NCBI GenBank assembly: GCA_001784875.1 | Contig: MFSH01000023.1 | Span: 33,969-97,968, forward strand | DNA length: 64,000 bases | Direction of reading: 5' to 3' | Source: Candidatus Moranbacteria bacterium RIFOXYB1_FULL_43_19 | GTDB lineage: Bacteria; Patescibacteriota; Minisyncoccia; Moranbacterales; UBA11712 | Shown here: positions 28,110 through 56,718 of the stretch, piece after piece | Numbering within the stretch: the first letter of the stretch is position 1 | How the letters are laid out: each line of letters starts with the position of its first letter | Notes under the pieces: generated by a model | The model's input: the letters and a program-made list of their open reading frames with translations, nothing else | Told to the model about the DNA's origin: nothing | Databases searched by the model: none | Position numbers and translations under genes: made by a program

Positions 28110-28853
28110 ATGACACACGAAAAAAACGTTATTTCCGCCGCAATCCTCTTCGTGTTGATACTTATCGGAGCCGGCTTTTATTCTTCGAAAAAAGAATCTT
28201 CTCCAGCTGCGGGCTTAACTGATTTCAAAAATAGTGTCGGAGAAAAGGCTGAAAAATCCGAGCCAGCGCTTCCGGAAAAAATCATGCTCGAAGTCCCGTT
28301 CACTTCTCAATCGCCCCTGGGGAATTGGCAGGACGTCCGGGAACAAAACGGATGTGAGGAGGCTGCTCTTCTTATGGTGATTGCCTGGGCCAGGGGCGAA
28401 AGCATTTCTCCCGAAGCGGCTGCCAGGGAAATACAAAACATGTCAGACTACCACCTCAAAGCGCATGGGCATTTTCATGATTTGTCGAACGCCGACACTC
28501 TCCAGCTGCTCAACGAATATTTCCAATATTTCAAAGCGCGTCTTGTCGAAGACATCGGGACTGAAGACATAAAAAAAGAACTGGCCGCCGGCAAACTGGT
28601 GATCGTTCCGATAAACGGGGCAACAATAGGGAATCCAAATTATGAACCTCCTGGGCCGACCAACCACAAGATCGTGATCATCGGGTATGATGACGCCGCT
28701 CAGGAATTTGTCACTCATGATCCCGGAACCAGCCGGGGGAAGAGTTATCGATATGGATACGAAGTTCTCGAGAAATCTCTGGAAGATTATCCTACCGGGC
28801 TTCACGAAAAATTTCCAGAAAGAAAAACATCAATGATCGTAGTGGAAAAATAA
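28110..28853 (+). CDS. membrane-anchored C39-like (papain-fold, Peptidase_C39_2-like) putative peptidase
   Basis: VPFTSQSP..NGCEEAALLMV (Gln/Cys) and later VTHDPGT (His-Asp); paralog of 30208..30951. Confidence 0.55.
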   Translation: MTHEKNVISAAILFVLILIGAGFYSSKKESSPAAGLTDFKNSVGEKAEKSEPALPEKIMLEVPFTSQSPLGNWQDVREQNGCEEAALLMVIAWARGESISPEAAAREIQNMSDYHLKAHGHFHDLSNADTLQLLNEYFQYFKARLVEDIGTEDIKKELAAGKLVIVPINGATIGNPNYEPPGPTNHKIVIIGYDDAAQEFVTHDPGTSRGKSYRYGYEVLEKSLEDYPTGLHEKFPERKTSMIVVEK

Positions 28854-28878: not shown

Positions 28879-30195
28879 ATGAAAAGAATGCTCAAAATTG
28901 TTCCGAAAGGGAGTGTTGTGCTTGCGGCAACAAGTTTTGCCTCGTATGTTTTGGGGCTGGCGCGGGACCATTTTTTTGCCCAGACGTTCGGAGCGTCACG
29001 AGCTCTTGACGCCTACAACGCGGCATTTCTTTTTCCCGACCTATTGTTCAATATTCTCATCGCGAGCGGGATTGCCGCGGCTTTTGTTCCGATTCTAACC
29101 AGCCTCCTGCGGTCCGACAAAGCCAAAGCGGAAGAATATGTCAATTCAGTCATCACTTCCGCCACTGGGACGATGCTTACGATGGCGATGCTCATCGTCA
29201 TTTTCGCGGGACCTGTCAGCGCAGTTATCGCGCCTGGCTTTGATCTTCAGGACAGGCAGCTCACAGTGAAAATTCTCCGTGTTCTCGCTTTTTCTCCCAT
29301 TTTTTTCGCGGCTTCGAATGCGCTCGGTGCGATGCTGATCACAAAAAGAAGATTTCTTTTCTACGGCCTTTCGCCGGTTCTCTATAATCTCGGGATAATC
29401 GCCGGCACGCTGCTTCTTGCTCCCCGTTTTGGGATAATGGGCGTGGCAGTCGGGACACTTTTTGGAGCGGCCTTGCATCTTTTGGTGAGAATAGCCGACG
29501 TCTGGCGGAGCGGCTTCCGTTTCAAAGCAGTTCTTGCCTTTCGCACTCCCGAATTTCGCAAAACTATCAGTCTTATGATTCCGAAAATGTTCGGGCACCC
29601 GATTGAACTGGCGACTTTTTGGGGTTTCACGGCCATTGCTTCCGCCTTGGCGGCTGGTTCGGTGGCGGTGATCAGTTTTGCCCGCAACTTTCAGAGTGTT
29701 CCCATCAGTCTCATCGGCATAACCATCGCGACGACCAGTTTTCCTCTTTTGGCAGGGGCGGCCAGCGAAAAAACGAGGGAAATTTTTTGGAAGATACTCA
29801 AAAGATCATCGCTTTTGATTTTTTCCGGAAGCTTTCTGGCTGCCATAGCGATTTATATTATTCGCGTGCCTCTCATCAGAATATTCCTTGGCGGCGGAGA
29901 ATTTCAATCCAACGACGTAGATCGGACTGCCGCCGCGCTGGGGATGTTTTGCTTGAGCATTCCGACCGAAGCCCTCGTCCATCTATTAGCAAGAGCTTTC
30001 TACGCGACAAAAAACACGACCATTCCAGTCGCGGTGAGCGTCTTGGGAATCATCATTGCCATTCCCGGGGGATATTTTTTGAGCCAGTCTTGGGGAATTG
30101 TCGCCCTGCCTTTCGCTTTTTTTCTCGGCAGCGCGGCGGAACTTCTGATCCTTGGAATACTTCTGCCGCTTCGCGTGCGAAAGATTTTTGCCTGA
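28879..30195 (+). CDS. murJ: lipid II flippase MurJ (MviN)
   Basis: 14-TM MOP superfamily; N-terminal SFASYVLGLARDHFFAQTFGASRALDAYNAAFLFPDLLFNI typical MurJ. Confidence 0.85.
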   Translation: MKRMLKIVPKGSVVLAATSFASYVLGLARDHFFAQTFGASRALDAYNAAFLFPDLLFNILIASGIAAAFVPILTSLLRSDKAKAEEYVNSVITSATGTMLTMAMLIVIFAGPVSAVIAPGFDLQDRQLTVKILRVLAFSPIFFAASNALGAMLITKRRFLFYGLSPVLYNLGIIAGTLLLAPRFGIMGVAVGTLFGAALHLLVRIADVWRSGFRFKAVLAFRTPEFRKTISLMIPKMFGHPIELATFWGFTAIASALAAGSVAVISFARNFQSVPISLIGITIATTSFPLLAGAASEKTREIFWKILKRSSLLIFSGSFLAAIAIYIIRVPLIRIFLGGGEFQSNDVDRTAAALGMFCLSIPTEALVHLLARAFYATKNTTIPVAVSVLGIIIAIPGGYFLSQSWGIVALPFAFFLGSAAELLILGILLPLRVRKIFA

Positions 30196-30207: not shown

Positions 30208-30951
30208 TCAGCCGATGATGATCATAACTTTTCTTCCTGTGTCCACATTTCCTCCGTTCCAGTCGTGAACGGCGTTCAGCAGCACCTCCGGTTTATAAAC
30301 ATAATCAGCGCCTTTCCTGGTTCCCGGATCGTTGGTGATCAAGTTGCCGCTTTTCGTGTAGCCTTTTACGACCAGCATATGGTATAGCGGGCCGGGCTGG
30401 CGGTAGTTGGGGTTTCCAATCTCTCTTCCGGCCAGGGGCAATATCACGGCCTTTCCTTCCGCCAAGGCCTTTTTTATTTCTTCGGAGTTGGGATCAGAAA
30501 TAGTTTTCACGTTCGCGAGTCCGAAATAATCCCGCAGAATGAGAGCCGTTTCTTCAATGTTCGTATCTTCATAATAGCCGAATTTTGTTTCTTCGAAATT
30601 TTTGATGGCGAGCATTTTTGCGTCCGCATCATCGGGGCCCGCGATGACCTTGCCTTTGACATAGCTGGCCGCCATCAGGACAGAAGCCTCTTCGCAAAAT
30701 TGCTGGTAAGGCAAATCCCAATTTTGGTGCGGAGCTTGGGAAGTGAATGGAATGGCAAGATTCACTTCAGCAGGCAGAGCTGCCTCCGGTTCGGACGGAG
30801 CCTGGTTTTGAGCCTGGGATGAAGCGGTGGAATTATAGGATTGAGCCGGAGGCATAGGAATTGCCTCTGGCTTTTTTTTAGACATCACAAAAAATATTCC
30901 AGCCAAAAACGGGAACGCGATCAGGATCAAAGTTATTCGGAGTCTTCGCAT
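30208..30951 (-). CDS. secreted C39-like putative peptidase, paralog of 28110..28853
   Basis: IPFTSQAPHQNW..QQFCEEASVLMA and ITNDPGT; same length (247 aa), convergent with murJ. Confidence 0.55.
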   Translation of the reverse strand: MRRLRITLILIAFPFLAGIFFVMSKKKPEAIPMPPAQSYNSTASSQAQNQAPSEPEAALPAEVNLAIPFTSQAPHQNWDLPYQQFCEEASVLMAASYVKGKVIAGPDDADAKMLAIKNFEETKFGYYEDTNIEETALILRDYFGLANVKTISDPNSEEIKKALAEGKAVILPLAGREIGNPNYRQPGPLYHMLVVKGYTKSGNLITNDPGTRKGADYVYKPEVLLNAVHDWNGGNVDTGRKVMIIIG

Positions 30952-31077: not shown

Positions 31078-31643
31078 CTAAATATTTTCACTCCTACCTT
31101 TGATCACTTTGCGAGCCCTGTTTGATTTCTCCAAAATTTTTCTTTCCTCCTCGCCGGCAGTGTCGCTGACTGATCTTCTCTTTTTTTCGTCCTGAAAGCC
31201 CTTGATCATTCTGACGAGCTCCACGGGATGCTTTTTCCCCATATTTCCCGAAAACACGGCCTTGATCATCCGCTCTTTTATTCTCCCGCCCGTGACGGCT
31301 ACCAAAACCGAGGGAATGATGTCTTTTGGGGAAAATATATATGCGGCATTGACTTTTTTTTGAGCCGCCAAAGAGTTTAATTTTTTTCAAGATTTTTCAA
31401 AAATTTGGCTTTTAAATATTCTTTCTCGTCTTTGAGCGACGATCCGGAGCCATAAACCAGGCCGTGTCCCGCCCTCAAGAAAAAACCTTCGCGGTCGGAA
31501 TAGGGCTCCAGCTTGACGTCAAAACCGCCCGCCTTGGCCAACATGCCTTTGCGGGCAAAATAAAAAGTCCCGTTTTTCCGTCCTAAAACGATTATGAGAG
31601 CGTTTTCCTTTTCAAATTGCGGCAGGGGCTGGGGGATCTTCAT
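31078..31643 (-). CDS. split ORF (two frames; 88 aa + 97 aa) joinable by a -1 shift on an A7 run; possible programmed frameshift or indel; product unknown (tentatively eRF1-fold/host-attachment-like)
   Basis: Upstream ORF ends GAA AAA AAT TAA; -1 re-reading on A7 gives ..EKK LNS LAA QKK.. continuous with downstream ORF, which otherwise needs a TTG start. Confidence 0.45.
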
Positions 31644-55500: not shown

Positions 55501-56718
55501 ATGTTCAAAATTGTTAAAAGAGAAAATGAGCTGAGGGCAGGAAAGCTGCAAACGATGCATGGAACGGTCAATACTCCGTTTTTTTTGCCTATTGCCACCA
55601 AAGGAGCAGTGAAAAATTTGACCTCCGAAGAGCTTCGGGAGGCCGGCGCGGAAATTATCTTAGGCAATACCTATCACCTTTGGCTCCGGCCGGGAATTGA
55701 TGTAATCAAAAAAGCAGCCTGCCCGCAACGCTCTCGCTTGCAAGGCGGGCGGGGCGGATTGCACCGTTTCATGAACTGGAACGGGCCGATTCTGACTGAC
55801 TCTGGCGGTTATCAGGTTTTTTCACTTGGCCCTGTTAAATTCCGCCAGGGGCGGACCTTCGCCAAAGGCGAAGGATTTAACAGGGTAAACCTATCTGAAG
55901 AGGGAGTTGAATTTCGCGATCCGGTGAATGGAAAAAAATATTTCATGACGCCGGAAAAATCAATCGAAATCCAGCTTGCTCTCGGGAGCGATATTATCAT
56001 GGTTCTTGATGAGTGTCCGCCGTACCCATGTTCAAAAGATTATGCGAAGAAATCGCTGGAGAGAACGACGAGATGGGCGGAGCGTTGCTTTCGATATTTT
56101 CATGAGCAAATAAATAAAAATAAAAAGAAATATAAGAAATGCAGACCTCTGTTATTTTGTATTGTTCAAGGTTCTGTATTTAAGGATCTCCGCAAAAAAT
56201 CGGCGAATCAACTGTTGAATATGGATTTCTCCGCCCTAGGCGGACCAGCCTCGGGCTGGGACGGCTATGCCATCGGCGGAGTTGCGGTTGGCGAGCCGCG
56301 GGAAAAAATGAAAAAGATCCTGCAGTGGGTTTTGCCGATGCTTTCGGAAGACAAGCCGAGATACCTCATGGGGCTGGGAAAGCCGGAAGAAATTGTCCAC
56401 GCCGTAAAGAATGGAATTGATATGTTCGATTGCGTCATTCCAACGCGCAACGCCCGGCACGGGTCATTTTTTGTCCGGGAAAGCAGAAGAAAGAGCATCA
56501 ACGGAAATAATTTTTATCGAACAATCAACATAACCAACGAGAAATTCAAAAAAGATTTTTTCCCAGTTGGAAAAAATTGTGATTGCTACACTTGCCGGAA
56601 TTTTACCCGGAGCTATCTGCGGCATCTTTTTTCTGTTGGCGAACCTCTGGCGGGGCGCCTGGCGACAATCCACAACTTAAAATTTTATCTGGATCTCATG
56701 AAAATATTGCGAAAATGA
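55501..56718 (+). CDS. tgt: queuine tRNA-ribosyltransferase
   Basis: TPFFLPIATKGAV, LTDSGGYQVFSL catalytic Asp region, Zn site CDCYTC..H; start taken at MFKIVK. Confidence 0.88.
   Translation: MFKIVKRENELRAGKLQTMHGTVNTPFFLPIATKGAVKNLTSEELREAGAEIILGNTYHLWLRPGIDVIKKAACPQRSRLQGGRGGLHRFMNWNGPILTDSGGYQVFSLGPVKFRQGRTFAKGEGFNRVNLSEEGVEFRDPVNGKKYFMTPEKSIEIQLALGSDIIMVLDECPPYPCSKDYAKKSLERTTRWAERCFRYFHEQINKNKKKYKKCRPLLFCIVQGSVFKDLRKKSANQLLNMDFSALGGPASGWDGYAIGGVAVGEPREKMKKILQWVLPMLSEDKPRYLMGLGKPEEIVHAVKNGIDMFDCVIPTRNARHGSFFVRESRRKSINGNNFYRTINITNEKFKKDFFPVGKNCDCYTCRNFTRSYLRHLFSVGEPLAGRLATIHNLKFYLDLMKILRK

Follow-up and report, generated by a model that had tools for sequence, protein, structure and literature searches.

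A one-base frame break in an A-run of a baeRF1/Host_attach-like gene, probably a young pseudogene, in a groundwater Moranbacteria population

In Candidatus Moranbacteria bacterium RIFOXYB1_FULL_43_19, a groundwater organism, a gene encoding a single-domain protein of the baeRF1/Host_attach type is split into two open reading frames (ORFs) at a run of seven adenines. The gene lies on the minus strand of the window, the stretch of 64,000 nt that was analyzed (contig MFSH01000023.1, positions 33,969 to 97,968). The best explanation, with a probability of about 0.65, is a recent, fixed and genuine 1-nt deletion that left the gene inactivated or severely reduced, with at most an incidental rescue by slippage. 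The most parsimonious course would be the shortening of an ancestral in-frame A8 (GAA AAA AAA TTA AAC, encoding ...LEKKLNS...) to A7 by replication slippage. Such a deletion would interrupt the single-domain gene in the middle of a helix and halt the zero frame after 88 codons. The split gene would then most likely be a young pseudogene, the event being too recent for stop codons to have appeared in its downstream half, and full-length protein would arise solely through incidental low-level slippage, either by an RNA polymerase that adds an A or by a ribosome that shifts by -1.

The features of the locus are collected in Table 1. On the minus strand, the upstream ORF ends with the codons CTT (31391-31389), GAA (31388-31386), AAA (31385-31383), AAT (31382-31380) and TAA (31379-31377), and the downstream frame, whose codons start at 31380, 31377 and so on, is -1 relative to it. 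Because the TGA at 31389-31387 leaves both frames open only over 31386..31380, the frames can be joined only within the A-run. Re-reading one A yields ...FLKNLEKK LNSLAAQKKVNAAYIF..., a fused product of 188 aa; the first-pass annotation had likewise linked the two ORFs by a -1 shift in A7. The TAA right after the heptamer needs no special origin, since ...AAATTAAAC with one base missing yields this stop automatically; likewise, the whole arrangement of a heptamer plus an immediate stop follows if GAA AAA AAA TTA AAC drops one A. The downstream ORF had been described as lacking an ATG. This holds near its start, where the first start codon is a TTG that begins 5 nt past the TAA and has neither an ATG nor a recognizable ribosome-binding site ahead of it in the sequence, but not for its whole length, as internal ATG codons occur from codon 35 onward. 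A third overlapping ORF (31094-31390, minus strand, 98 aa, TTG start) is +1 relative to the upstream ORF and starts at the A-run. Its Lys/Arg/Gly-rich product was matched to no homolog, and it is probably a chance ORF.

Table 1. Features of the split gene and its junction (positions in the window; SNPs are those found in the population).
Feature	Position	Strand	Remark
Upstream ORF, 88 codons + TAA stop	31377..31643	(-)	N-terminal half of baeRF1/Host_attach-like protein; three beta strands, conserved YSDREGFF loop, first half of helix 73-96
A7 homopolymer	31381..31387	(-)	Every ortholog has one base more; frame restored by an eighth A, whether in DNA or mRNA
A_AAA_AAU, formal X_XXY_YYZ heptamer, zero frame	31380..31386	(-)	Read from the sequence; not conserved in relatives
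TAA stop, zero frame	31377..31379	(-)	Immediately 3′ of the heptamer
TGA, -1 frame	31387..31389	(-)	Just 5′ of the A7 run; 5′ limit of the doubly open zone
Downstream reading frame (-1)	31078..31386	(-)	C-terminal half of the protein; open until stop 31080-31078
Downstream ORF on its own	31078..31371	(-)	97 aa; callable only from TTG 31371
A8 run in downstream half, GCT CAA AAA AAA GTC	31354..31361	(-)	In frame; internal control
Hairpin, 5-bp GC stem (31368-31364 with 31347-31343), 16-nt loop	31343..31368	(-)	11 nt 3′ of the heptamer
SNP, K to N	31180		Two samples
SNP, E to Q	31149		
SNP, V to D	31307		

The two ORFs correspond to a single gene in all relatives. Four homologs of the fused product (181-191 aa; identity 78, 52, 49 and 31%) cover 96-99% of it, with E-values from 3e-87 to 5e-16, and the upstream half aligns with residues 1-87 of these single-ORF proteins. 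So extensive a match to single-ORF homologs places the link between the two ORFs far beyond chance. Searches at the DNA level in genome and metagenome collections brought in about 50 further loci, for 45 distinct proteins, and every one of these 45 related loci is a single ORF (0/45 split). The relatives are about 146-196 aa long and start with MKIxxxLPQF, apart from a 120-aa protein and another that is cut off by the end of its contig, and the family alignment is gap-free over the junction. An exhaustive HMM search retrieved 670 family representatives at 50% identity; among the best 150 of these, 149 are single-frame and the sole fragment is the 97-aa ORF of the window itself. A comparison of orthologs had been proposed as a check on recoding, and the continuous frame found in 45/45 loci and in 149/150 of the best representatives counts against a programmed frameshift.

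At the junction itself, the closest ortholog (78% identity) has CTTGCCAATAAATCAAAC, which is one base longer and contains no A-run. The 20 nt of the window (CTTG-AAAAAAATTAAACTCT) thus stand opposite 21 nt in this ortholog (CTTGCCAATAAATCAAACTCT, Leu-Ala-Asn-Lys-Ser-Asn-Ser), whose junction sequence is the same in four independent assemblies; ATAGGCGAGAGGATCAAGCAT stands there in the next ortholog. The junction codons of the 45 relatives show that A-runs occur sporadically in the Lys/Glu-rich helix and are in frame every time. In one relative (L019), GAA AAA AAT stands at the same spot and is read through in the zero frame. A conserved slip site was considered and rejected, as neither an A-run nor the heptamer is kept at the junction in the 45 relatives. 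The A8 run of the downstream half is in frame and also present in ortholog L001-L004. The frame break is specific to one lineage, the family having exactly one base more than the window. No relatives between 78% and about 100% identity, from which the mutation might be dated, were found in the collections searched.

The fused product is one globular protein of the aeRF1-central-domain type (Host_attach/baeRF1) with an RNase-H-like fold, and the junction falls within α-helix 73-96 of this single compact domain. Since the halves make up one fold and the cut lies inside a helix, the earlier suspicion that the downstream ORF is not independent is borne out. The family assignment rests on the relatives and the fold, because the protein of the window matches Pfam below threshold (E = 0.039 and 15 bits against the family profile, cut-off 26.7); no NCBIfam family was found for it. 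Among 43 relatives, Host_attach (PF10116) is matched by 25 (best 3.5e-9) and baeRF_family12 (PF18856) by 16 (best 1.2e-8). These matches and the fold support the resemblance to eRF1-fold, host-attachment-like proteins that had been suggested tentatively from the sequence. Two motifs are near-invariant in the family: an N-terminal M-K-I-x3-L-P-Q-F, and a Y-S/T-D-R-E-G-F-F...G-S-G-S loop at the position of the aeRF1 GGQ loop. No description of them was found in the literature searched. The GGQ itself is not conserved, the loop reading YSDREGFF...GSGS without a conserved Gln, and in this respect the protein departs from catalytic release factors of the aeRF1 type. [quoted passage not shown] No paralog that could compensate for the split gene was found in the window.

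The frame break is genuine and not an assembly error. By exact look-up, the identical 88-aa product occurs in at least 24 contigs (33 index blocks), drawn from ENA MEGAHIT assemblies, ANAN16 scaffolds, JGI metagenomes, Logan assemblies and two NCBI genome assemblies. Wherever the contig continues, the 97-aa ORF follows 5 nt after the 88-aa ORF, and in four Candidatus Moranbacteria MAGs in NCBI the halves are deposited as separate hypothetical proteins. All fetched copies that span the site carry A7 and are base-identical there. The contigs match the window at 99.8-100% identity across kilobases; this is a nearly clonal groundwater population, repeatedly sampled. A second strain background (L076/L078) also has A7. 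A repaired 188-aa allele, sought in the form of both possible products, was absent from about 15 billion proteins in an exact look-up, and the same assemblies render the A8 run, 20 nt from A7, correctly in frame. Assembly error was favored at first since the orthologs are single-frame, and was dropped as the main explanation when the same split appeared in at least 24 independent contigs. The homopolymer indel offered in the first-pass annotation as an alternative to recoding is therefore half right: at a homopolymer the locus lacks one base that every ortholog has, but the deficit is no artefact of assembly. A generally error-riddled assembly was also considered. A scan for same-strand ORF pairs joined at homopolymers turned up many candidates, and the plausible ones proved to be separate intact genes rather than frame breaks (Lgt/histidine kinase, Tgt/U32 peptidase with an ATGA overlap, and the 58211/58807 pair). 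Elsewhere in the 64-kb window the long genes are intact, and no further gene was found to be split.

Several features of the surrounding DNA deserve description in their own right. The window (44.6% G+C) contains 101 A7/T7, 25 A8/T8 and 3 A9/T9 runs, so that an A7 run is in itself unremarkable, and with A/T runs so dense, those of 8 and 9 nt included, the mutational target for homopolymer frameshifts is large. A/T runs of 6 or more number 344 in the 64 kb and are distributed asymmetrically between the strands, with 219 A-runs and 125 T-runs on the + strand. Between the Tgt and U32-peptidase genes, stop and start codon overlap as ATGA at 56715-56718 without any frame break, the apparent 135-nt overlap of these genes existing only in the mechanical ORF list. 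Between 30855 and 31028 the second strain background, represented by two contigs from other samples, diverges from the window by about 20%, while the split gene beside this tract differs by a single SNP. The tract begins about 50 nt past the stop of the split gene and reaches the N-terminus of a C39-like peptidase; it looks like a recombination tract or a strain-variable segment in an otherwise clonal population. Tight clusters of differences are also found at the ends of the MurJ gene (28879-30195), with 11 at 28944-29025 in L069 and 15 at 30090-30150 in L072, in contigs that are otherwise identical to the window; these are probably further short recombination tracts. MurJ is flanked by two divergent genes for 247-aa Peptidase_C39_2-like proteins, 28110-28853 (+) and 30208-30951 (-), and in L001 and L005 genes for C39-like and S51 peptidases likewise lie close to the baeRF1-like ortholog.

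The signals that might promote recoding at the junction are weak. The sequence at the A-run is a slippery heptamer by its pattern, and neither this site nor the two-frame layout is conserved among orthologs. In E. coli, A_AAA_AAG slips far more than A_AAA_AAC and A_AAA_AAA (PMC5009743), and A_AAA_AAU is a weak bacterial slip site, not the efficient heptamer. With regard to transcription, it is mainly in A/T runs that RNA polymerase inserts a single A, and the rate of slippage and insertion climbs exponentially with run length (PMC5574713). Efficient transcriptional slippage has been described for runs of 9 nt (PMC5009743), a length that A7 does not reach. An eighth A would give a 188-aa product that aligns with the family without gaps. 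No SD-like motif was found 5′ of the site in AAATTTTTGAAAAATCTTG, and neither an Rfam family nor a tRNA was found in the window. Folding for a downstream stimulatory hairpin, which had been proposed as a further check, gave no more than a marginal 5-bp GC stem: its loop has 16 nt and it stands 11 nt from the heptamer, as against a usual spacing of some 5-9 nt for a stable stimulatory hairpin or pseudoknot. Its predicted folding energy is -9.0 kcal/mol, with z = -2.64 in a context of 46 nt, where 2 of 200 shuffles fold as well, and a non-significant z = -0.48 in 81 nt. The stem is lineage-specific, being absent from the orthologs (-1.8 kcal/mol in L001). What is left of the programmed frameshift proposed in the first-pass annotation is the formal heptamer, as the closest orthologs have no such slip site. 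The comparison with dnaX made there holds for the A-rich X_XXY_YYZ heptamer and fails for the layout of the products, which is opposite to that of dnaX.

Measured against the 78% ortholog (L001), omega is 0.19 in both halves of the gene, the downstream core being as constrained as the upstream part (dS about 0.5), and the downstream half is still free of stops and indels. This signal reflects mostly history before the mutation. Variation within the population gives a small hint of relaxed constraint: three SNPs are recorded in the gene (Table 1), all of them downstream and all non-synonymous, with none synonymous and none upstream, a pattern that comprises three sites only, some of them from short, low-coverage contigs. 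Because the population is nearly clonal, fixation of the broken allele is no guide to its age.

These observations can be set against other explanations. A selected, lineage-specific recoding would offset the A7 break usefully by a -1 ribosomal shift on A_AAA_AAU, perhaps aided by the 3′ GC stem and the neighboring TAA, by transcriptional insertion of an A, or by both, and the cell would make the 88-aa product as well as the full-length 188-aa baeRF1-like protein. It accounts for a heptamer with its stop directly 3′, for the gap-free family product restored by realigning one base in the run, for an intact downstream frame with the same omega of 0.19 as upstream, and for a GC stem found in one lineage only (-9.0 vs -1.8 kcal/mol). 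That the broken allele is fixed throughout the samples and both strain backgrounds, and that an intact one is nowhere recorded, agrees with it, as does the concentration of single-A insertions by RNA polymerase in A/T runs (PMC5574713). We nevertheless regard this reading as unlikely. The site and the two-frame layout are absent from the 45 related loci and 149 representatives; heptamers of the A_AAA_AAU/C type are poor compared with A_AAA_AAG in E. coli (PMC5009743); an SD-like 5′ stimulator is missing; the stem is short, with a 16-nt loop, 11 nt away, and z = -0.48 in the 81-nt context; the run is below the 9 nt of efficient slippage; 3/3 downstream SNPs are non-synonymous; and in a near-clonal population fixation says little on age. 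In a narrower form, a release-factor-like protein that binds the ribosomal A site would be made only by a -1 slip, ribosomal or transcriptional, on the A7 beside the stop codon, in a recently evolved arrangement helped by the new GC stem, which is a doubtful proposition. Were recoding true, the amount of full-length factor would depend on how the translation apparatus is working, loosely as in the RF2/prfB feedback. A selected recoding would, moreover, supply a rare case of an uncultivated bacterium in which a frameshift signal has newly arisen within a gene for a ribosome factor.

Gene fission supposes two polypeptides, the second translated by termination-reinitiation at TTG 31371, that assemble non-covalently into a working domain. 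The TTG lies 5 nt past the stop, the downstream ORF is intact, and genes for 88 and 97 aa are called in every assembly, but a single compact RNase-H-like domain would be cut within a helix and would lack residues 88-91, the family is otherwise unsplit (45 loci and the best 150 representatives), and the TTG is preceded by neither an ATG nor a recognizable ribosome-binding site, which makes fission improbable. It is very improbable that the true genome has A8 and that assemblies systematically lose one A. Homopolymers are the classic sites of length miscalls, and exact repair to A8 gives a perfect family-like product; against this, different samples, BioProjects and assemblers gave the same A7 in 24 contigs or more, the A8 20 nt away and the 25 A8/T8 runs of the window break no genes, and the repaired products are never called among about 15 billion proteins. 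A phase-variable (contingency) switch, in which the length of the A-tract toggles the gene on and off at a high rate, would suit a break located in a homopolymer within a coding region. It is hardly credible here, as heterogeneity in tract length was not seen, every assembled copy being A7 with no ON allele recorded, and a tract of 7 nt is short for efficient slipped-strand switching. For the young pseudogene, the points on the other side are a downstream frame that is fully open, a 3′ GC stem that the orthologs lack, and a broken allele that persists in both strain backgrounds and across samples, a pattern that a functional recoded gene would give as well.

Frameshift mutations in homopolymers are routine, and the finding is of an already known kind. 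Under the most probable reading, the baeRF1-like gene is non-essential in this Moranbacteria lineage. The 88-aa and 97-aa hypothetical proteins of several Moranbacteria MAGs are one gene and should be annotated as frameshifted. The case further illustrates that a textbook 'slippery heptamer plus stop' arises automatically when an A8 loses a base in a genome rich in A/T homopolymers, and that a comparison of orthologs tells such chance heptamers from programmed recoding. It also brings to notice a compact, uncharacterized and mainly CPR family of stand-alone aeRF1-core proteins, whose fold is akin to those of Balon, Pelota and eRF1.

Compared with known systems, the family stands apart from the hibernation factor Balon and from aeRF1, which have three domains and more than 300 aa, whereas its members have one domain of about 150-190 aa. 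Where aeRF1 has its GGQ, the family carries a Y-S/T-D-R-E-G-F-F loop of its own, and it also has an N-terminal LPQF motif. The Balon study left out homologs shorter than 300 aa (PMC10901736), and in the loci inspected here no HPF/RaiA neighbor was seen. The closest described groups are baeRF1/Host_attach (PF10116) and baeRF_family12 (PF18856), for which the protein of the window scores below the Pfam cut-off. Like prfB, which encodes RF2, the split gene has a frameshift beside a stop codon in a release-factor-like gene, and a feedback loop is conceivable. However, the autoregulatory shift of prfB is +1, takes place at CUU UGA behind an SD, and is kept in most bacteria, whereas here the shift would be -1 on an A-run in one lineage, and the protein lacks the features for stop-codon recognition and the GGQ. 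The IS3/IS1 transposases and the tail chaperones of phages (G/GT) have a similar A-rich X_XXY_YYZ heptamer, and in IS3 and G/GT, too, the zero frame ends soon after the site, the long product coming from the shifted frame. E. coli dnaX has the opposite layout, with a long product from the zero frame and a short one after the shift; in the split gene the zero frame stops at once and the shifted frame alone gives the full protein. Unlike all these programmed -1 sites (IS3/IS1, G/GT, dnaX), the present site is not conserved, its heptamer ends in U and not G, it lacks an SD-like 5′ stimulator, and its sole 3′ structure is a 5-bp stem at 11 nt. Another parallel is found in the poly(A) tracts of Buchnera and Blochmannia, where 'corrective' frameshifting has been described (PMC5009743). 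The run here is 7 nt long, as against about 9 or more for efficient slippage, whether in the poly(A) rescue of endosymbionts or in recoding of the T. thermophilus dnaX type. In both cases, though, a conserved gene is interrupted by a one-base change in an A-run, one A inserted by RNA polymerase or one -1 slip of the ribosome would restore the frame, and the setting is an A/T-homopolymer-rich genome in an organism with a small genome.
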